Assembly (NCBI GenBank): GCA_951406725.2 | Contig: OX597823.1 | Location: 35,650,001-35,714,000, forward strand | DNA length: 64,000 nt | DNA from: Octopus vulgaris | Taxonomy: Eukaryota | Direction of reading: 5' to 3' | In this document: positions 20,345 to 60,022 of the stretch, piece after piece | Layout: each line of letters starts with the position of its first letter | Position numbering within the stretch: the stretch's first letter is position 1 | Position numbers and translations under genes: made by a program | Notes under the pieces: generated by a model | Told to the model about the DNA's origin: nothing | What the model saw: only the letters and a program-made list of their open reading frames with translations | The model's database searches: none

Positions 20345-23170
20345 TTCGTAACACAATGTAGGTAAAAATGCACCGGAGTCTTTAGTCATCTGTGAAGTTA
20401 CAAGGACCTCAGATAGATAATACTTTACTTAAGGTGTGTGCCGTGTCCAATAAGGATGCTTTTTGCAAGACATCAATCTTGTATGGGATTTCCAGTTGCC
20501 TTAATAATTTTGAAGTTTCAATGGGATTGAGCCCAACGCTCCGATCACCATTGGTATGGAATGCAAGAGGGTAATGTAAAAGTTTACATTACCCTCTTGC
20601 ATTCCATACAGTCTTGCCCCTTCCACTTTCAGTTCGGAGTACTTGGTGATATTTTCAACCCCTTTACTCACAACATTTATGACATTTGGTATGGCTACAT
20701 CAATGATCTGACAGTATTTGTTTCTTTTATTCAATATGACAATATCCGGTCGACGGTGTTTGATTACACGGTCCATCTGAAAACCATAGTCCCAGAGTAT
20801 CGTTACTTTTCCATCCTCCTGCATAAATTTACTTGGTACATGTTCGTACCAGTTCTCCGTTACTTTACATTGGTATTTACGGCATACAAGCCAATGAAAA
20901 TATACACACATACACATACACTTTATCGTGGCGGCGCTTGTATTCATTTTGTGCAAGGCTCTCTCATCAACTTACCAAGTGGGTCACATTTTCCACACTC
21001 TTTCCACAATGTCTTCATTTCTGCGTGTCAGAAGTTTTATAGATGTTATACTTCACTGAATTGGTAGTGAAAGCCTAGTCTTGTGCAGCAATGATCAGGC
21101 TTTCGGTGGTACGCTTCAAATCCCCTTGCTCAAGCCATGCCCACGATGCTGTATTATCCTTAACGTCTTGTGCATTCCTTTCAAACTGTCCCTGCATTCT
21201 CATTGCAAGAAGGTCTTCTTTTCCTTTCTCCTCAGATCTTTGATTAAAGTCTTCCTTGCCCATCATTTCCTCTGCATTTACACCCATATCTTTCGCGGCA
21301 TATTGTAGCAGGTCTTCATCACTATTTATCAAATACTCGGCAAGCGAGTATTAGTCCTCTACGACCATTCTTTTCTTTTCATATGCAGTATGTCTACGTT
21401 TGCTTTAGAGTGTACTCTCCCCCCCCCCCCTGCAGCGTCATCAACTTTCTCGCCTTTCTATCCAGTGCTGATATTTCTTCCTTAGTCCATTTGAGGATGG
21501 ACGCACTATATCTGACCACCGCAACGCCCAGATATTCATTGCGGTAATCAAATTTTTAGCATTCAGGTTGGATTTCAACACCATCTTCACCCTTTTTTTG
21601 CTACGCCTCGCTGTCCTTGACTTTCATTTCTCTGTGTAGAATGTCATCCAGCTCCAAAATCCTAAATATATCTATACCCACTACCGTCGGGTTCACCCAT
21701 GGTCTCTGCTGATGGTAACCGCAATCCTCTGCAGGCTGCTTACTTCCCTCTTTTCATATTAAGTACTGACCATTTGGTAATCCCAAATTCCATACCGATG
21801 TCCCCACAGTTCTGGACTGTTTTGGTTAGGGAATCTATCTGTTTTTCAGATTTCCCAAACAATTTCAGGTCATCCATAAACAGAAGATGGTTCAATGACG
21901 GGCCTTTCTTCCCACATTGGTAGCCCAAGTTAACTTTCCTAAGTGTCATTATTATGGGTATTAGTGCAAATACAAAAAGTAACGGAGGAAACGAGCCATC
22001 TTAGAAGATTCACCTTTTAATATTAACTTCTCCAAGGAATACATTTCCACTCTTTCATGCTATTCATCAGAAAATTTGTGATATTGTCAGCAACACCAAA
22101 CATCTACAGACATTCAACGATCCATATCATATGCCTTCTTAAAGTTAATCCAAGGCATAGACATGTTTGTATGATGTCTTCTACAATGCCTCAAAACTGT
22201 TTCATTGGTGACCAGGTGATTTTTGGTATCCTGAGAACTCTTCCTAAATCCTTTTTGTTCCCTCGGTAGTATTTCTTCCTGTGCCAGGGAAGTGTATGTT
22301 TTTGCGGCACATATTCCAGTGAGTATCTTCCACATTATGCTTAGGAATGCTATGGGACGGTAGTTTCCCACGATATTCCCCTTTCTTCTATCTTTCATTA
22401 CAAGTGTTGTTCTCCCAGTTACCATCCACACGGGGACTGTACCTTTCTGGACACACTCATTCAATTGGGCTGCTAGTCTTTCATGCACCGCGTGGCATCC
22501 CTTCAGTCAGAAGCCATGAATCCCATCTGATTCAGGGGCTTTCCATTTAGGCACTTTACTCACTTGTTCTTTCACACTACCCGTGCTTATTACAATATTC
22601 ATTATCTAGTTGGTTCAATTCCCCTGCATGTCCACCCACCACAGTATCAGGGCCACTGTATAACGTTCCCGTTCCTCATCCTTAACAGCCCCATCACCGT
22701 TCCCCTGTTCCTCCTGTCTACTCTTCTCCCTGCTTTCAACTCCTACCTCTCTGTTTTCAACTCCAACCATCCTTTGTAACTCATCCGCAAGGTCTCTCAG
22801 GCTCTCACTAATCCGAGATATTTCTACTCCAGTTAAGTATCCCTTTCTCCTAATTACTCTCGCTTGGTTCATTAGTTTATTTTCTGACATTGGACACATG
22901 TCCTTTTCCATCCAAAATTTCAAGGTACGTCGGCCTACTCCGCGACTTCTTTCCGGTTTTGCTCTTTCATGACATTCAATAAGTGTTTCTTTTTGCGCAC
23001 ACGGTGTATGTGATCTGTTGTGACATAACAACTGTCCGAGGCCAGATCACTGTCCCTGGTGCGGGCGAAAAACCTTCACTATGATCGGCTATAGCTTCAT
23101 TCTCGCCGTTAATTCTTTCATTCTTGTTTTGCATCATAATTTCATGAGTCGTTCGTGGAGTTCCCACGGG
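20345..23170 (-). mobile_element. Decayed R4/Dong-type non-LTR retrotransposon (RT + restriction-like endonuclease)
   Basis: NYRPIAFLS, EQKGFRK, WINFKKAYD, NHLLFMDDLKLF, TESLIIAAQD, ILWD..DRVIKHRRPDIV..IIDVAIP..KYSEL, IPMVIGALG in colinear broken frames. Confidence 0.9.
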
Positions 23171-34908: not shown

Positions 34909-35102
34909 CATACATACGTACAATAAAGGTCAAGCTTCTTTCAGATTCCATCCACCTATTCACATAGCTTTTTTCGGCCCATTGACATAGTGGAATACTA
35001 TATATATATATATATATATAAAAAGTTGAGTTGTGGGGTATCGCACGAGTGGGATTATATAAGAAAAAAGGTTTGAAAATGCAATTTAAACGATGTTTAT
35101 TT

Positions 35103-35143
35103 ACTTAACCGGTTTCACTCTTTGGTAAAAGATTGTCAAAAGT
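35103..35143 (-). ncRNA. Minimal HHR motif (U3-A8), left arm copy
   Basis: Mirror image of 35853-35893. Confidence 0.55.
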
Positions 35144-35852
35144 TACATTTAAGGAAACATTGAATAATATGGGTTCAAAAAAGTTTTTTACATAATTGTC
35201 ACATTGAATATTATGCATTCAAAAAAGTTTTTTACATAATTGTCACATTGGATATTATGAATTCAAAAATGTTTTTTTATACATAATTGTCACATTACAT
35301 GTATAACAGCAGGCACGGACACATCTATTCACACCCGCATACTAACCTCCTGATAACCCCAAAATCATTCATGCATAAAGGGGAAGTATACACCACATTG
35401 GCTACTTCTTCTGTTCTCTCAGTTCAGCCTTTCTGCTAATACTGACAGGTCAGTAAAAACATACTTAAAATATTCTGAGATGTACAAAAAATCCATTTTA
35501 ATTTTTGCTGTCAAAACGCTGTATATATATACCAAAGATTGTATATATATACATGTAATGTGACAATTTGCGACAACCAATAATTAACGCAACCAATTCC
35601 CAATAATATATTTGTTTTATCCTTTTCTGCCAAATTTTCCCAAATATTCTCATCACACTATTGAACTTCTCTGTTACCAAACACTATATTTATACATGTA
35701 ATGTGACAATTATGTATAAAAAAACATTTTTGAATTCATAATATCCAATGTGACAATTATGTAAAAAACTTTTTTGAATGCATAATATTCAATGTGACAA
35801 TTATGTAAAAAACTTTTTTGAACCCATATTATTCAATGTTTCCTTAAATGTA

Positions 35853-35893
35853 ACTTTTGACAATCTTTTACCAAAGAGTGAAACCGGTTAAGT
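35853..35893 (+). ncRNA. Minimal HHR motif (U3-A8), right arm copy
   Basis: actt-TTGACAA-tcttt(tacc)aaaga gt-GAAA-ccgg-TT-aagt; 4-bp stem I, 5-bp stem II with 2 extra nt, palindromic stem III. Confidence 0.55.
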
Positions 35894-35932
35894 AAATAAA
35901 CATCGTTTAAATTGCATTTTCAAACCTTTTTT

Positions 35933-35968
<36 letters not shown>

Positions 35969-35971
<3 letters not shown>

Positions 35972-36545
35972 CATATATAAGAGTGTATAAGTATTTATAT
36001 ACGGAGAGGAGACCCTTGACAAGACGCCTTACGTGATACAAAAGGCAGCGAAACTCAAACTACGAAAAAGAGTAAATTCAAAAAGAATGAAAACAACAAT
36101 TATTTATAGTTAATCCCAAACTCGAGTTTCTGTATTAATGAACAAATAAATTAATTTGTCATCCGCACTTCCTCAGTGGGTCGCTAAGGCAATGAATAAT
36201 TATGTAGCTATGCGTACCTTATGTTTTCAAATCAACCGCACAAGTGCAGTCACATAGTCATTAGCAAATAATAAAATGAAAACTGCGTATCAAAAGGCTT
36301 TGAAATTATTAAAATTTTACTGTGAAAATTTAAGGGTAGAAAATTTAGAAAAATTTCATAACGGTGGCTAGCGCGCGTAATAAAAGTCAATATACAACAT
36401 GTTTTCATATATAAGAATGCATAAGTATTTATACACAGAGAGGTGACACTTGACAGGAAGCGTTACATGCTATTGACTTTTATTACGCATGCTAGCCGCC
36501 GATATAAAAAATTTTCTAAATTTTCTACCGTTATAATTTTCATAT
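35969..36545 (-). mobile_element. Non-coding PLE/retrozyme-like element with terminal direct repeat and 5' inversion
   Basis: ~70-bp direct repeat 35969-36038 / 36403-36472; inverted repeat ~36320-36391 / 36471-36545; HHR inside; (TA)n on both sides. Confidence 0.7.
36115..36180 (-). ncRNA. Type I hammerhead ribozyme motif
   Basis: ccca-CTGAGGA-[a gtg cgg atga caaat taattt atttg t tcat taa tac a]-GAAA-ctcgag-TT-tggg; canonical core, long stem II, palindromic stem III. Confidence 0.78.
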
Positions 36546-38579: not shown

Positions 38580-40551
38580 TCTCGAAGAAGGAGAAATAAG
38601 CTATATGAAATCTCTGAGCGAGATGTAAACAGTACCAATACGGAATCGTAACATAAAATTGCCAACCAAGTCTGACGTCCTATACCAGACTGTGTTACTC
38701 ATGTTTATAGACGTCTCTACCAGCTGGCTAACGACACACATTCTGTGTCCGATTAGTGTTTCTGAGGCGAGGTAAGCTCTCCCATCCGTAGCCTTATGTG
38801 ATACACAAGAACTCGAGTTTCTAGGTGGTTACCCGGCCTCCGTGAATGTTAATCATATCATAGTGATGAAAAGTCACTCCACTCGCAAAATACTATATGC
38901 TTTTCCAGCTACAAACCGTCGCTGATTTGGAAAAAGGAGAAATAAGCTATATTAAATCTCTGAGCAAGATGTAAACAGTAGCAATAAGGAATTGTAACAT
39001 ATAATTGCCAAACAAATTTGACGTCCTATACGGAATGTGCTAAAGACGTTTATAGCCCTAGGAAGATATATCTACCAGCTGGCTAACGACACATATTCTG
39101 TGTCCGATTAGTGTTTGCGAAGGAAATCAGCGCTTCCATCTCTCGCCTTATATGATACACAAGGACTCGAGTTTCTCGGTGGCTATTTGTCCAAGGGGTA
39201 TGTTAATCACCAGCTCGTGATGAAAACTCACTCCACTCGCAAAATACTAGGTTTTTCTAGCGACAAACCGTCGCTGATCTCGAAAATGGAGTAATAAGCT
39301 ATATTAAATCTCTGAGTGAGAGGTAAACAGTAGCAATACAAAATCGTAAGATGTAATTGCCAACCAAATGTGGCATCCTATATGGGACAGTGGTACTGAC
39401 GTTTATAGCGCTGGGAAGACATCACTACCAGGAGGCTAACGACAGTCATTCTGTGTCCGATTAGTATTTGCTAGAGGAGGTCATTGCTCCCATCCTTAAC
39501 CTTGTGTGATACACATGGACTCAATTTTTTAAGTGGTTACCCGTCTTTAGCGTGTGTTAATCACTAGCTAGTGATGAGAATCCACTCCACTCTCAAAATA
39601 CTATATGTTTTTTTTCCAGCGACAATCCGTTGCTGATCTCGAAAAGGTAGAAATAAGCTATTTTAATGTATGAGCGAGATGTAAACAGTAGCAATACAGA
39701 ATCGTATCATATATATGCCAACCAGCTTGGATGTCCTATACGGGACAGTGCTACTGACGTTTATAGCCCCAGGAAGACATCTCTACCAGCTGGCTAACGA
39801 CAAACATTCTATGTCCGGTTAGTATTTGTGGCGGGAGCTCATCGATCTCATCCATAGCCTTACGTACTACACACGGACTCGAGTTTCTAGGCGATTACTC
39901 GTCCTCAGTGTGTGTTAATCACCAGCTATTGAATCGTAACATGTAATTACGGAATCGTAACATATAATTGCCAGCCAAATGTGGCGTCCTATATGGGACA
40001 GTAGTACTGACGTTTATAGCACTAGGAAGACATCTTTACCAGCTGGCTAACGACACACATTCTTTGCCCCATTAGTATTTTCGAGGGGAGCTCAGTGCTC
40101 CCATCCGTAGCCTTATGTGATACAAAAGGGCTAGAGCTTCTGAGTAGTTACCCGGCTTCAGCGTGTGTTAATCACATGGTAGTGATGAAAAATCACTCCA
40201 CTTGCAAAATACTACATGCTTTTTCCACCGACAAACCGTCGCTGATCTGGAAAAAGGAGAAATAAGCTATATTAATTATCTGGGTGAGATGTAAATAGTA
40301 GCAATAAGGAATTGTAACATATAACTGCCAACCAATAATATAGCCTGTTTCTCCTTTTTTGTGGTCAGCTTCGCAATACTGATCAGCTCGCAAATACTAA
40401 TCGGACACAGAATGTATGTCATTCTGAGATGTCTTCCTGGGGCTATAAACCTCGGTAGCTTTTTCCCGTATAGAACAGCACACTTGGTTGGCAATTATTT
40501 GTTACGATTCTGTATTGCTACTGTTTACATCTCGCTCAGAGATTTAATACA

Positions 40552-40555
<4 letters not shown>
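38580..40555 (-). repeat. Tandem array of ~354-bp units (about 5 units plus an inverted partial unit), each with a decayed hammerhead ribozyme; retrozyme-like
   Basis: Anchor GGAGAAATAAGCTAT (or variant) at 38590, 38936, 39288, 39646, 40256; HHR positions 38803, 39157, 39511, 39869, 40122; inverted segment 40334-40553 followed by (TA)n. Confidence 0.9.
39869..39915 (-). ncRNA. Best-preserved HHR of the tandem array
   Basis: acacaca-CTGAGGA-cgagtaatcgccta-GAAA-ctcgag-TC-cgtgtgt; intact core, GUC triplet, 6-bp stem I beyond one mismatch. Confidence 0.8.
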
Positions 40556-40591
<36 letters not shown>

Positions 40592-52170: not shown

Positions 52171-52329
52171 TTGCAGTTAATTCGGCATTATTAAATGACT
52201 ATATGACCAGTATTAAATAATCTCCCAATCTACATACCCTCGCAAACAAAGCAATAAATATTTATGAAGCAAACATTTCCACACATTCAAGACTCCTCAC
52301 AAACGCCATCACCACAACATACAAAAGCA

Positions 52330-54050
52330 CTCGTAATTCCACATACTATGGCATAAACACAGAAGCAAAGGAGCTAGCTATCTGCCTTAAGATAAAGGAC
52401 TGTGTGGACTGTCTCGCCACGTGACTCCCCACCATATTACACTTAAGGATCATAAGCCAATTTCAATTCCAACGCCAAATACAGGCGTATCAACCTCTCC
52501 AAAAGCGAAATAGGTATCAGTAGCAAGTGTATTTTTGATACTTTCAACTCTGACATCAGAAGGGATACAGGGTTGACTCATGGAACTCCAGTGCAGCTGT
52601 GATAGACTGGTTCCGCGGTATCGAGAATAAATCAGCCTGAAAATTCAGCCAGTTCAACATTGTTGACTTCCACACTTCCATATCTAAGCCCCTCCTCCTG
52701 AAGGCCCTAGCTTTTGTTGGACAATTTACCATCATTAGTGATCTTGATATCCGAACCATCATGAATGCCAGAAAGTCGAATGTTCGGTTCACAACGATTC
52801 CTCCTAGGTGATCCATTGTTTCATGTCCCTTTGGAGAATTTTGACGGGGCTGAAATCGCCGACCTCGTCAGGTTATATATCTTGGATACCCTTCAAGAGA
52901 CGTACACATCCAAATAGGTCAACCCTCTATAGGGGTGATGGCCAGACTATCTCAAGCCATATGAATGGTCACATCATGGTTAACGTCAGGAAGAACTTGA
53001 TAAAAAATATTGAAAGATTTCGGCCTGTCCATAACGGTCACTACCAACCTGATTACGGTCGATTTCTTGGACATAATATTAGACCTGAACACGGGCAAAT
53101 ACTACCCCTACAGCAAGCCTAATGAAGAAACGGTATATATCCACAAGAGCTCAAACACATCCCCCACCACTGTAATTAGAAATCTATTTTCCGGCATTAA
53201 CAAATGGGTTTCTAAACTCTCAGCCATTATGGAGAACTTTAATAGGGCCGCCCCTCACTGCAATGATGTTTTCGCTAGGAGCAGATTTTCAGAGAAGCTC
53301 ACGTATGTGGACGAACCTCAAACTCGCTGTCCTCACCCCAAGAGAATTAAAAAAGGAAAATTATCTGGTATAAATCCCCCCATTTAACCTAGAAGTATCT
53401 GCCAACGTAGCCAGGGGCCTCCTGTCGTTAATAAAGAAACACTTCCTCAGAGGCCATAAGTATTACAAACTCTTCAGCCTCCATAATGTCGAGGTAAGCT
53501 ACTCCTGCTTAGACAACATTGCATCTAACACCGCACGCATCAACAGATGTAAAGATGTGGCCACACAACCCAACCCCAATCTGCAAGTGTCGGAACTTAC
53601 CACTTCCCTCAAGGAACATCCTGCCTCTAGGAGGATCCTGACTCTAGATGGATCCTGCTTCTCAAGGGCTTTAGTATACAGAGCCACACTTACACCATCC
53701 GATGGCATTACTAGGCACTATATGGACATGACAGTCAATAACATCAAGGGAAGATACTCCTAGAATTTGCATTCCTTTAGATCTATGGACAGAGAGAACT
53801 CCACTTCCCTGTCGCACTTTCTCTGGAGACTTCGTAACCTCTGAGATGAAATATCCAACATCCAATGGACTACTGTCGACAGGGCGCCACCATATTAACC
53901 CGGTGCCCCTAATTGCCAGCTGTGTCTCCGCGAAATAGAGCATATCGTTTACCAACCCGCAGTATCTATCGACAAGAAATATGAGGCATCGTACACCTTT
54001 CTGGTAAATTTCAAGTCATTGGTCACCGACAACCCGGATATATCTCCTTA
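52330..54050 (+). mobile_element. Decayed Penelope-like element (RT + GIY-YIG endonuclease)
   Basis: TLKDHKP, INLSKSEIG, FDGAEIADLV, LYRGDG, DFLDIILDLNTGKYYPYSKPN, then DGSCFSRALVYRA..HYM.MT.N.IKGRY, STSLS..LW.L, CQLCLRE. Confidence 0.9.
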
Positions 54051-54630: not shown

Positions 54631-54680
54631 TATATATATATACGTACACATGTAAGTATATTATATATATATATATATAT

Positions 54681-55853
54681 TGTTACGGAATCACCCGTCG
54701 TCGCCCGTCCCGAACGGCTCACACAAGTTCCGCCACGGAACCCAAAGAGGCGGAGAGAGGAGATACAGATAGATACTGCCACAACCCCAACAGCACAGAG
54801 ATACAGAGGCACAACCCGAGATACAACCCAAAGAGGCAAGGCAACAACTGGCAACACTGGCTTATATTCAAACAACAGTTTATACGACAATTACAATTGT
54901 TACAACATCAAGATACATCAAAGCATGCACGTGACTACTCAATACATAATACAACAGCATTTCAAGAGTACAACTCAAAGCATAATACAACATCATGTAA
55001 CAATATATCAGTCCGGAGACACAACAAGTCATATACAGTATTTCAAAGGTACACATCACAGATAACGTCACATCAACAAGTCATTTACTCTTCAACTCAC
55101 AATGTTCTTTATCGACTACATCGACAGAGTCTCTGACTGTTCTTTTCACTGTTCAATACACCGTGACACATATCAATGCACAAACACATACCTCAATTCC
55201 TAACTGAATCTGCCAGTGTCCCATTCCTCTCAATACTGCTAATTCCTCTGAATACTGCTAATTCCCTTGAATACTGCTAATTCCCTTCTGTGCCGCCAAG
55301 CTTTCTCGCATCCAACTTGCTCCTAAGAATTCCAACGCTTGCTCCTTAAATCCAAGGTCCGTCTGTCTTCTTCGAGGACCGGCCAGCGACTGCCAGATCC
55401 GTCTGTGTTCTTCGACGACCGCTCAACGACTGCCCTTCTTGACGACCAACTGCGAACTACCAGACCTCACTTCGTCTCTGTCCTTCTTCCACTCCCCTCA
55501 TCTCCCTCTGTCTATATCGCTCTTACCCTCTCTAACTGCCCTGGTCCTTATATCCTATCTATATCGCCTGCTGTCTCTTAGCCTTTCTATTTGCTCTCTG
55601 ATCTTACTGCCTATCTCTATTTGCTCTCAGCCCTCACTCTATCGCTATCGCCTGCTGCCTATCACCCTCTCACGACAGCTCTCAGATCCTTTAATCTGTC
55701 TTCCTCTTCACTTCTTCAAGGGGTGCTTAGAATGACCTCCAATTCACCCGAATCTGACAGGACAATGGGTTTATCCTAATGTAGGTCACTGGGACATACT
55801 ACACTGGCTAACCCAGGTCACTGGGACATACTACACTAGCTAAGCCCGTAACA
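54681..55853 (-). repeat. 3' LTR (1173 bp)
   Basis: TGTTACGG...CCGTAACA inverted ends; by eye differs from the other LTR by one 3-bp indel and two substitutions. Confidence 0.97.
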
Positions 55854-55866
55854 CTACCCCCTACCT
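55854..55866 (-). other. Polypurine tract
   Basis: Minus strand AGGTAGGGGGTAG immediately before the 3' LTR; contains the ORF stop codon. Confidence 0.85.
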
Positions 55867-57819
55867 AAGCTTTTGTCGACCCGACAAAGCATAACAAACT
55901 CGCACCTCCGAGCAGCAGACTCTCCAGGGGCTGGGGGTCCCCTCGGGTGGTTTCTCCTCCGGGGGTCTCACCTCCCACGGCCACCACCTCAGCACCAGCC
56001 ACAGGTTGGCACCTTCCCTCTGCGGCTTGGGTAACACCTCCGCCAACGCCGCCAGGCTTCCTACTAGCCGCCCACAATAGGCGCACCGTCCGAGGAGGTT
56101 CCTCAAATCCCTCACACAGGAAGGGTCCGGCCAATCCTTCACAGTGGCCACCTTCCTCAGGGCTCTATAGCCCACGTAGCACCTTGCTGTACCATCTCCA
56201 TTCCGCGCAATTATCGCTGACGACCACGGACCATTCTGTCCTTTCACTGCTCCCTGTCGCCGATATCTCCTCTTGCGCTGCTGTACTGGGGCCTTCCTCC
56301 GGCCTCGCTGCTTCCTCAAGCGACGACCGCCTTGGTCGACTAAACGTTCTGCCAGGTCCGTGCGACCAGCATCCAACAACCTTCGCGACCAACGTCCTGC
56401 GCTTTTCACCAACACCCGAGTGCCAACCAAGCACCGGCGACTCCCTGCGGACCGCCTCCGCAACTGCACAGGTAGACCACCATCTCCGACTGCATCACTG
56501 TATTGGCAGAACTGGCCCTGCCGCTGGTCTACCGTCCGGCGCAGTTCCACGATTTTCCCTCTGCAAATCGCCTGCGCAGCCTTCAATAACTCGGCCGACT
56601 CAACCAGCGCTCTGTCAACTTCTGCCTCCACCAGGGTCCAGCCGACCCTCAATTGAGCTCCTATTCCGCACTGCATGTCGGGCTCCACCGGCCCCACGCA
56701 ACCATCGAATACAGAGCTCCCCCAAGTGCCAACAAAGCACCAGCGACTCCTTGCAGACCACTTCCTCAACTGCATCCGTGGGCCACCACCTCCTTCCACT
56801 GCGTTGCCGTATCGGCAGAACTGGCCCCACCACTGGTTCGCCATCTGGCACGATTCCTCGATTTGCCTTCTGCAAATCGCCTGTGCCACTTCCAAAAGAT
56901 CGGCCGACCCAGCCAGCGCTCCACCAGCTTCTGCTTCCACTAGGGTCCACCCGACCCTCAATCGAGCTTTCACTAGGCACTGCCTGTCGGGCTCCACCGG
57001 CCCCAAGCAACCATCAACCACAAAGCTCACCCAACGCTGAAGCAGTCTTCCTGGTCTCAGTGGACCCACCACCGTTCGCAGCCGTCTCGCCTCGTCAACG
57101 GGCCTGGTCCTTTTCCTCACCAGCTTCCGTACCGCAGGCTTCACAACACGCACGCTCGGCCGCCAGTCCATCCACGCCTGTGGCCTCTCCACAGTGGGAA
57201 CCATACAGTCCCTCTGGGCCCCAAGAGACAGGGGTCCAGACACCAAAGGACCCGCACACAGCATAGCACCTGCCGCGACCATCACACACAGAGCCGGAAC
57301 CTCGGACTCAGCGACATTCTCCCCAGACCTCGCCAGCTCTTCGTCCTGAGCTCCGAGAGACAGGGGTCGAGATGCCAAGGGCTCCAGACACGGAACAACA
57401 GCATCAGCCATAACACCTTTCACAGGCCTTTTGGTTACTTCAACCTCTACGGGTTCCAAATCACAAGATTTCTTGGGTACAGCGTCACAAATTTCGGCAA
57501 CCAGCCCAGGTTCCGCAAACACAGCCGGTCCAGCATCACAGATTTCGGCAACACTTCCTTCACTATCTGTTTCCCTTGATGCTTCGTTCGACGGGCAATC
57601 TCTGCCCACAGGACCGTCGCTATCCTCGGTCCAACACCGATCCTTCAAAGCTGACCCATCCGCAACCTCAAGCTCCCGCTGATCTGCCCACAGGCCCTGT
57701 CGCCTCCTGTCCATTCTCTCCACGAACGCGTCCGTCTGCGCCATCTGGCCCCTTAACATCTCCACAATCAGAGCAAGCGAAATCTCCTCGTCTCCGGTCT
57801 GACAACCAGACAAATCCAT
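55861..57819 (-). CDS. ~652-aa single ORF of the LTR element; novel N-terminal part plus vestiges of Gypsy pol, no catalytic RT/RNase H/integrase
   Basis: Uninterrupted from ATG 57819 to TAG 55861. DAGRTDLAERLVDQG..KQRGRR, GPWSS....GDGTARCYVGYRAL and VKDWPDPSCVRDLRNLLGRCAYCGRLV echo Gypsy DLGRT..H.IDTG..KQ.PRR, SPWSSP..KKDG..RFCVDYR.LN and WP.P....VRSFLGL..YYRRF. Confidence 0.75.
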   Translation of the reverse strand: MDLSGCQTGDEEISLALIVEMLRGQMAQTDAFVERMDRRRQGLWADQRELEVADGSALKDRCWTEDSDGPVGRDCPSNEASRETDSEGSVAEICDAGPAVFAEPGLVAEICDAVPKKSCDLEPVEVEVTKRPVKGVMADAVVPCLEPLASRPLSLGAQDEELARSGENVAESEVPALCVMVAAGAMLCAGPLVSGPLSLGAQRDCMVPTVERPQAWMDWRPSVRVVKPAVRKLVRKRTRPVDEARRLRTVVGPLRPGRLLQRWVSFVVDGCLGPVEPDRQCLVKARLRVGWTLVEAEAGGALAGSADLLEVAQAICRRQIEESCQMANQWWGQFCRYGNAVEGGGGPRMQLRKWSARSRWCFVGTWGSSVFDGCVGPVEPDMQCGIGAQLRVGWTLVEAEVDRALVESAELLKAAQAICRGKIVELRRTVDQRQGQFCQYSDAVGDGGLPVQLRRRSAGSRRCLVGTRVLVKSAGRWSRRLLDAGRTDLAERLVDQGGRRLRKQRGRRKAPVQQRKRRYRRQGAVKGQNGPWSSAIIARNGDGTARCYVGYRALRKVATVKDWPDPSCVRDLRNLLGRCAYCGRLVGSLAALAEVLPKPQREGANLWLVLRWWPWEVRPPEEKPPEGTPSPWRVCCSEVRVCYALSGRQKLR

Positions 57820-57856
57820 AGCGAAAAAGAACCGATCGAAACGCAGCAATCAGGAC

Positions 57857-57875: not shown

Positions 57876-57877
57876 GT

Positions 57878-59053
57878 TGTTACGGAAGAATCACCCGTCG
57901 TCGCCCGTCCCGAACGGTTCACACAAGTTCCGCCACGGAACCCAAAGAGGCGGATAGAGGAGATACAGATAGATACTGCCACAACCCCAACAGCACAGAG
58001 ATACAGAGGCACAACCCGAGATACAACCCAAAGAGGCAAGGCAACAACTGGCAACACTGGCTTATATTCAAACAACAGTTTATACGACAATTACAATTGT
58101 TACAACATCAAGATACATCAAAGCATGCACGTGACTACTCAATACATAATACAACAGCATTTCAAGAGTACAACTCAAAGCATAATACAACATCATGTAA
58201 CAATATATCAGTCCGGAGACACAACAAGTCATATACAGTATTTCAAAGGTACACATCACAGATAACGTCACATCAACAAGTCATTTACTCTTCAACTCAC
58301 AATGTTCTTTATCGACTACATCGACAGAGTCTCTGACTGTTCTTTTCACTGTTCAATACACCGTGACACATATCAATGCACAAACACATACCTCAATTCC
58401 TAACTGAATCTGCCAGTGTCCCATTCCTCTCAATACTGCTAATTCCTCTGAATACTGCTAATTCCCTTGAATACTGCTAATTCCCTTCTGTGCCGCCAAG
58501 CTTTCTCGCATCCAACTTGCTCCTAAGAATTCCAACGCTTGCTCCTTAAATCCAAGGTCCGTCTGTCTTCTTCGAGGACCGGCCAGCGACTGCCAGATCC
58601 GTCTGTGTTCTTCGACGACCGCTCAACGACTGCCCTTCTTGACGACCAACTGCGAACTACCAGACCTCACTTCGTCTCTGTCCTTCTTCCACTCCCCTCA
58701 TCTCCCTCTGTCTATATCGCTCTTACCCTCTCTAACTGCCCTGGTCCTTATATCCTATCTATATCGCCTGCTGTCTCTTAGCCTTTCTATTTGCTCTCTG
58801 ATCTTACTGCCTATCTCTATTTGCTCTCAGCCCTCACTCTATCGCTATCGCCTGCTGCCTATCACCCTCTCACGACAGCTCTCAGATCCTTTAATCTGTC
58901 TTCCTCTTCACTTCTTCAAGGGGTGCTTAGAATGACCTCCAATTCACCCGAATCTGACAGGACAATGGGTTTATCCTAATGTAGGTCACTGGGACATACT
59001 ACACTGGCTAACCCAGGTCACTGGGACATACTACACTAGCTAAGCCCGTAACA
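57878..59053 (-). repeat. 5' LTR (1176 bp)
   Basis: Direct repeat of 54681-55853. Confidence 0.97.
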
Positions 59054-59054
59054 C

Positions 59055-59102
<48 letters not shown>

Positions 59103-59229
59103 ATTAATTAATAAGGGTGAGAGAATTAGATACTAATTTAATAGTATATTTATTCCACACCAAGTGGCCTAGTGCTACGAGAAACCTGGATTATTATAAT
59201 ATTTTATAACATATTATAATATTTTCACA

Positions 59230-59564
59230 AAATAAATATAAGAGAGTGGTCACTATATTGATCACTCTAGCACCAGTTAATCCAAAAGGTTTCAACCACG
59301 AAAATACATGTTTCCCATGAAAGCCAGTACGACTGTTAGCTCACACGGACAGGGCAAATAAAAAATAACAAAAATACAGATTATTTTGGGACAATAGCGA
59401 AACAATTGTCCCAAAATAATCTGTATTTTTGTTATTTTTTATTTGCCCTGTCCGTGTGAGCTAACAGTCGTACTGGCTTTCATGGGAAACATGTATTTTT
59501 CGTGGTTGAAACCTTTTGGATTAACTGGTGCTAGAGTGATCAATATAGTGACCACTCTCTTATA

Positions 59565-59571
<7 letters not shown>
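59230..59571. repeat. Near-perfect palindrome with ~165-bp arms and ~9-nt spacer, between (TA)n tracts
   Basis: Arms are reverse complements with a single-base indel; centre GGGACAAT-AGCGAAACA-ATTGTCCC. Confidence 0.96.
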
Positions 59572-59651
<80 letters not shown>

Positions 59652-59848
59652 TAAGTAATTAAGGGTTTAGCAACGATTTGCCTCACCACACACCGAATTT
59701 AGAAATAGCAGTCAAAGAGTTATAGCTATTCTTTCTACTAAAAGGGAGATCCGATATATAAGATACATATATAGGGTTGCGAATATTCATTTATAAGTAT
59801 CACCACCAGTGGCCTAACATGTATAAATAGTCAATAGACAGCATGTTC

Positions 59849-60022
59849 ATATTTTAAAATAGTGTACATTTAAACACAAAAGAAAATTAGCCTTTAACAG
59901 GTAATTTTTACATGCTAGAAGAAGCAGCTTTAGGCGTGTTTGGGTGCTTCTTCTAGCATGTAAAAATTACCTGTTAAAGGGTAATTTTCTTTTGTGCTTA
60001 AATGTACACTATTTTAAAATAT
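59849..60022. repeat. Hairpin with ~78-bp arms and 18-nt spacer, between (TA)n tracts
   Basis: ATATTTTAAAATAGTGTACA...CTAGAAGAAGCA / TGCTTCTTCTAG...TGTACACTATTTTAAAATAT with two mismatches. Confidence 0.95.

Follow-up and report, generated by a model that had tools for sequence, protein, structure and literature searches.

The palindrome at positions 59230–59571 of a 64,000-nt stretch of Octopus vulgaris DNA (referred to throughout as the window) turns around inside a putative hammerhead ribozyme core, which raises the question of how the inversion arose and whether the ribozyme determined where it turns. Both inverted-repeat formation and the role of the hammerhead in Penelope-like elements are called open in the cited portions of two studies (PMC8557442, PMC11167929). 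A preliminary description of the locus had placed the turn-around point at the palindrome of hammerhead stem III and proposed that the inversion arose by template switch or fold-back at that palindrome, or at the cleavage site, during reverse transcription. We find that in the palindrome, here termed P1, the end of a high-copy repeat is present twice, head to head, and that the two copies are joined via 3 shared bases.

P1 comprises 342 bases, with a left arm of 166 nt and a right arm of 167 nt on either side of a 9-nt spacer. The arms are exact reverse complements save for a single run, which holds 4 A on the left and 5 T on the right (59496–59500); the near-identity of the long arms reported earlier is borne out with this one run-length difference. 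The spacer and the beginning of the right arm read AGC-GAAA-CAATTG-TC-CC, and the left arm closes with GGGACAAT, likewise as first described. The mirror centre lies at 59400, inside GAAA, whereas the stem III palindrome is centred 5.5 nt away, at 59405.5. No target duplication is visible in the sequence around P1. The locus contains the following features:

59056–59099, no strand assigned: left (TA)n tract, a likely target site, common to the LTR element that ends at 59056.
59105–59229, minus strand: one-sided extension of ~125 nt beyond the left arm, likely an optional 3′ tail of the element, ending ACCCTTA beside (TA)n.
59230–59395, minus strand: left arm, an inverted 5′-truncated copy whose 5′ end is family position 59405, in loop 3 and upstream of the predicted cleavage site.
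59393–59395, no strand assigned: 3-nt microhomology, present both where the left arm ends and in the native sequence that non-inverted members carry.
59396–59404, plus strand: 9-nt spacer of native sense family sequence, comprising the base of the putative stem II 3′ strand, GAAA and the start of stem III.
59399–59410, plus strand: probable hammerhead 3′ half with GAAA, a C-G pair, the palindromic loop AATT and GUC; cleavage is predicted after 59410.
59405–59571, plus strand: right arm, a sense, 5′-truncated, tail-less copy of the repeat's 3′ end that, with spacer and microhomology, starts at 59393.
59575–59650, no strand assigned: right (TA)n tract, a likely target site.

The P1 arm belongs to a high-copy repeat. 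Thirty-five words sampled from 59105–59565 were sought in public sequencing runs, and at least 0.69 of them were found in 20 of the 24 listed runs, from 10 studies. Contigs of four of the 24 runs (X1, possibly the source sample, X2, X6 and X7; 4 studies) were compared with 59356–59568 at 85% likeness, yielding 828 matching contig records in X1 and 1214 in X7; summed depth is not taken as copy number or truncation frequency. Recovery of non-inverted family members had been suggested as a check, and such members are present in all four runs. Among the matches listed, 8 records in X1, 1 in X2, 1 in X6 and 13 in X7 depart from the window sequence at 59393, and beyond this position the departing records of all four runs (4 studies) share one AT-rich upstream sequence. 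Other family records start at 59393 with 0 differences (59393–59473 and 59393–59466; X2, X6).

These records define the junction. Both P1 copies are 5′-truncated relative to the non-inverted members: the right copy starts at 59393–59396, and the end of the left copy maps to family positions 59405–59408. Because the non-inverted records break off at 59393, the junction holds 3 nt of microhomology, in which bases 59393–59395, upstream of GAAA, are shared with 59405–59407. Since non-inverted members also carry the motif and the spacer, the GAAAC-AATT-GTC motif and the spacer are native family sequence. The single run-length difference of the arms matches a common family variant, a deletion at 59496 (18 contigs in X1, 26 in X7, 1 in X2 and 1 in X6), and both arms carry the same allele at 59467 and 59476, two often-variable sites. 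The near-identity of P1 to prevalent members suggests that it may be a young copy; arm-to-arm conversion could also keep the arms alike. Scans of viral and prokaryote contigs returned 0 family members each, and none was found in metagenome collections, where two 22-nt pattern matches (L001 1298–1319 and L002 3001–3022) lie in the same unrelated eukaryote-like coding region, are alike over the 22 nt only and are attributed to chance. The arm motif is absent from the supplements of PMC8557442 and PMC13282606 (one text file each, in which line breaks or the other strand may hide matches), and a 12-nt match to it in a supplement sits in an unrelated ORF and was discarded.

The position of the junction argues against a direct part for ribozyme cleavage. 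GUC (59408–59410) and the bases that follow the predicted cleavage site are present in both P1 arms; the junction was therefore not set by cleavage, and a turn at the cleavage site is rejected. Judging from the sequence, neither template appears to have been cut after 59410, unless it had been re-ligated. That both templates were apparently uncut at the predicted site agrees with in vitro data in the cited part of PMC11167929, where mutating the hammerhead left insertion normal and uncleaved RNA served as the principal substrate. An origin by annealing at the stem III palindrome is rejected on similar grounds: it would yield a spacer-less palindrome without GAAA, and P1 has both spacer and GAAA. 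Joining at microhomology during reverse transcription is the likeliest way in which the inversion arose, and the geometry places the event neither at the cleavage site nor on the stem III palindrome.

The motif at the turn is probably a 3′ half of the kind known from Penelope-like hammerheads. GAAA, A15.1-U16.1, C15.2-G16.2, a palindromic loop 3 and an NUH triplet are all present at 59399–59410, and the C at 59398 fits C11.1. Penelope-like hammerheads, in the cited portion of PMC4209133, likewise have GAAA preceded by C11.1, a C15.2-G16.2 pair, a palindromic 4-nt loop 3 and GUC. In block-shuffled windows, the probability that a relaxed 3′ half, defined as GAAA, a palindromic C..G stem/loop and TH, lies no more than 10 nt from a chosen position is ~0.0025, or ~1% over the four palindromes considered below. 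No CTGANGA or TTGANAA occurs upstream of the P1 motif in the window, in keeping with the earlier remark that the CUGANGA half is absent here, and family members show no CUGANGA/UUGANAA core in the visible 36 nt before GAAA. The latter excludes a compact minimal hammerhead with a stem II of 4–8 bp. The motif had been read as half of a minimal hammerhead; its GAAA, palindromic stem III and GUC stand, but the compact form does not, and the putative stem II in the P1 family must far exceed the 7–8 bp reported for hammerheads in the cited part of PMC4209133. At the gathering score, Rfam gave 0 matches in the whole window.

Complete motifs in which stem III is palindromic and stem I has 3 bp or more occur in the window at 35857(+), 35139(−), 900(−) and 36176(−), the first two belonging to opposite arms of a single repeat; none arose in 30 shuffles. 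In the hammerhead at 36176(−), 39 nt separate the core from GAAA, and its distance to (TA)n, 150 nt, is near that of P1. Over the 10 bases that end 2 nt before GAAAC, 36176(−) and the P1 family agree fully (10/10) and in the same register; in this match, first spotted by eye, 6 bases come from loose ends and 4 from the window, and its chance is 1e-4 to 6e-4 over 24 motifs. As 36176(−) is a complete long-stem-II hammerhead that shares these bases in register, the P1 family probably bears a hammerhead of the same kind; the lack of significant similarity between the P1 arm body and that element speaks against this. A core with a 39-nt gap would fall just outside the 36 nt visible in the family, and the far end of the loose upstream sequence may, by eye, close a short hairpin like the tip of a long stem II. 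Hammerhead-like motifs also lie upstream of (TA)n at 36176(−), 36873(+), 9454(−) and 900(−), three of them with 39 to ~57 nt between core and GAAA, which suggests long-stem-II variants that short descriptors would miss. A second motif in the right arm, GAAAC-AT-GTA at 59486, has no core upstream and was taken as chance.

Four of the close inverted repeats in the window, P1 included, are head to head and have flanking TA tracts; those at 20554, 12760 and 37594 have no TA tract beside them and were left out of this set. The four are:

59230–59571: P1, turns inside the putative hammerhead core.
59849–60022: P2, with a spacer without GAAA.
35056–35940: P3, turns 167 nt upstream of its own core.
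36323–36545: P4, turns 84 nt downstream of the homologous cleavage site.

P3 is a perfect 251-nt inverted repeat with a 383-nt spacer and TA on both sides; a 37-nt AC-rich extension is present on its left arm only, and both arms contain a hammerhead with a U3-A8 core variant. The TA-adjacent head-to-head repeats at 59770–60022 and 36323–36545 have clearly homologous extensions (0/1000 shuffles), and both their junctions lie near CATG. The arm body of P1 has no significant similarity to the P2 arm (870/1000 shuffles).

The extension of P1 (59105–59229) has no partner on the right side of the palindrome. Summed over three other tails of the window, its similarity amounts to a score of 100, which 3 of 2000 shuffles reach; among ten control flanks one scores 98 against this 100 (804+, itself the end of a hammerhead-bearing fragment). 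Pairwise comparison with the extensions of two other palindromes gave 4/1000 and 77/1000 shuffles, the latter for P2, which alone is not significant; neither is the comparison with the 59651–59770 fragment (780/1000). One of the compared extensions adjoins a body homologous to the 36176(−) element (0/1000 shuffles). Runs with 29–32 of the 35 words (0.83–0.91) exceed the number expected from the arms alone (P 0.016 to 0.0003, simple binomial; 0.08 to 0.003 with junction words counted too), an excess suggesting that the extension segment is itself repeated. Minus-strand ACCCT(T)A closes the extensions or fragments at 59105–59120, 59651–59670, 59770–59780 and 36323–36340, and in three cases TA adjoins it. 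These ends possibly mark a conserved reverse-transcription start, like one reversed telomere repeat.

This layout recalls Penelope-like elements. In the cited portions of PMC8557442 and PMC3846280, these elements and the inverted junctions of Penelope show an inverted 5′-truncated copy and a one-sided tail, with (TA)n targets in the former. P1 resembles in particular the inverted 5′ pLTRs of EN+ Penelope-like elements (Penelope/Poseidon, Neptune, Hydra and Naiad; Pen2a of Adineta vaga) in its head-to-head truncated copy, short junction overlap, extension at one end, (TA)n target and lack of a visible target duplication. It differs from them in that no ORF lies between its arms, its junction falls inside a putative hammerhead, and its extension of ~125 nt is longer than the 30–40-nt tail given in the cited parts of these papers. 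The repeat is likely a (TA)n-targeting Penelope-like retrotransposon, a judgement from layout, with no ORF linked to the family. The previously suggested link to the 5′ inversions of Penelope-like elements accordingly gains from the (TA)n tracts, the one-sided extension and the high copy number, and stands as a likely, layout-based membership. Non-LTR retrozymes, described in the cited parts of 10.64898/2026.07.22.740005 and PMC7229834 as short non-coding units with a type I hammerhead and related to pLTRs, are head-to-tail tandems, whereas P1 is head to head; P1 was rejected as a retrozyme, a second copy of the arm in direct orientation not being found in the window.

We consider it most probable, at roughly 55%, that P1 represents two 5′-truncated copies of the 3′ end of this high-copy, likely Penelope-like repeat, derived from two cDNAs joined by the 3-nt microhomology. 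The element endonuclease would nick both strands within (TA)n, and the two nicked ends would each act as primer on an uncleaved RNA copy, with reverse transcription beginning at a tail-bearing start in one case and at a tail-less start in the other. Both reverse transcriptions would stop early in the structured hammerhead core, one in loop 3 and the other 6 nt into the putative stem II, after which the complementary cDNA 3′ ends would anneal and be filled in. The part played by the hammerhead would be no more than that of a pause site, with neither its own cleavage nor its palindrome being needed. Elements of this scheme have precedent in a Penelope-like protein that acts on AT-rich DNA, where it cuts and extends both strands; it starts reverse transcription at two sites delimiting the tail, is predicted to dimerize and uses mainly uncleaved RNA (cited part of PMC11167929). 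A two-cDNA origin is favoured by the presence of P2, P3 and P4 in the window, two of which have a similar extension on one side. Several observations count against it: the extension exceeds published tails and has moderate homology to other tails; the arm body has no significant similarity to the hammerhead-bearing 36176(−) element (164/1000 shuffles); and the 3-bp end pairing at the junction is, by fold computation, not stable by itself. A related scheme is L1 twin priming, in which two primed cDNAs are joined by microhomology to give a 5′ inversion. In L1, however, the two parts cover different stretches of one RNA; the P1 copies cover the same stretch, so that two templates or a fold-back are needed.

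A fold-back is the substance of the main rival to the two-cDNA origin, self-priming on a single template, which we regard as possible if doubtful. A cDNA (or antisense RNA) would have reached 59393, folded back on 3 bases over a 9-nt loop and copied itself, and the tail would later have been lost from the right end, during integration or after. Arms that are alike save for one run length are in its favour, as are the microhomology and the orientation of the spacer, which suit a minus-strand fold-back; self-priming has been proposed for Penelope inverted junctions (cited part of PMC3846280), and endonuclease resolution for a one-sided tail (cited part of PMC8557442). The extension, however, is on the left copy only and the spacer runs on into the tail-less copy; a self-copying cDNA would have needed a further step to add the extension. 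The arm difference moreover coincides with a family variant, and the native sequence, folded as DNA, shows no fold-back at the junction end. The placement of the extension and the match of the arm difference to the family variant together favour two cDNAs over a simple fold-back; the second argument is weakened because a run-length difference may recur by slippage or assembly error, and the otherwise identical arms, with the same alleles at 59467 and 59476, fit one template as well as two. An origin at the DNA level, either as a MITE or foldback transposon or through a repair or replication template switch in an existing insertion, is very unlikely: the long near-perfect arms, short spacer and TA-rich DNA would suit it, yet family members are non-palindromic at the junction and continue into unrelated upstream sequence in all four runs, the extension is one-sided and target duplication is not visible. 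Membership in a MITE or foldback family was rejected because members lack the inversion upstream in the four runs, and for want of a visible target duplication. Least probable of all is an assembly or library artefact from a chimeric fold-back read. No contig piece across the P1 junction was found among the matches listed in the four runs, but the records were filtered, so this gap neither confirms nor denies the junction. No listed run is on record as RNA; X2, which may be RNA, likewise has no listed piece over the junction, and this counts neither for nor against its transcription. The asymmetric flanks, a spacer of native family sequence with microhomology and the three other such structures of different geometry in the window all speak for a genuine insertion.

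A further possibility, which we consider unlikely, preserves a structural role for the ribozyme as a hotspot of inversion. Two RNAs would pair antiparallel via the palindromic stem III as a dimeric hammerhead, hold the cDNA ends and concentrate junctions there; in such a non-catalytic role the stem III dimer of a Penelope-like hammerhead would stall both reverse transcriptases and seed head-to-head inversions, the long stem II making the site a hotspot of the family. Palindromic loops 3 permit dimers (cited part of PMC4209133), and both truncation points of P1 lie inside the 18 nt that make up the putative core. In addition, one X1 contig joins 59381 to 59424, which we read as another inversion of the P1 family, a second junction-like joint 9–14 nt 3′ of the predicted cleavage site. 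This joint, however, is a single contig, and the stretch open to comparison shows such skips only at family positions 59405–59444, a range biased to the hammerhead; no strand-change joint was found among the matches listed. The pairing used at P1 is not that of the palindrome, and hammerhead mutants left insertion in vitro unchanged (cited part of PMC11167929). Only one of the four TA-flanked palindromes in the window, P1 itself, turns at a hammerhead half, and the general tie between hammerheads and inversions that had been proposed is therefore not seen within the window. Among the papers listed by searches of open-licence literature, no title or abstract opening linked hammerheads to inversion junctions.

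Most probably, P1 is an unremarkable instance of an insertion shape already known. Its junction is resolved to the base, with 3 nt of microhomology and both templates seemingly uncut at the predicted ribozyme site. Sequence data from the many copies of its family could suffice to show if junctions gather at the ribozyme, and if one or two templates are used. If junctions do cluster there, the hammerhead would gain a structural role in retrotransposition.

The window, whose repeat landscape has a cephalopod-like look, contains further elements of related kinds. A broken ORF at 52300–54000 (+) recalls a Penelope-like RT/GIY-YIG protein, although Pfam searches of two frames near 53000 returned 0 families. 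At 38580–40560 (−), a tandem array of ~355-nt units that are 78–81% alike contains remnants of type I hammerheads, with a full core kept at 39908(−), and looks like a decayed non-LTR retrozyme. Immediately to the left of P1, direct repeats of 1.18 kb at 54680–55856 and 57877–59056 are 99.6% identical, have flanking TA tracts and enclose an ORF at 55861–57849(−), by which features the pair is identified as a young LTR-type insertion.
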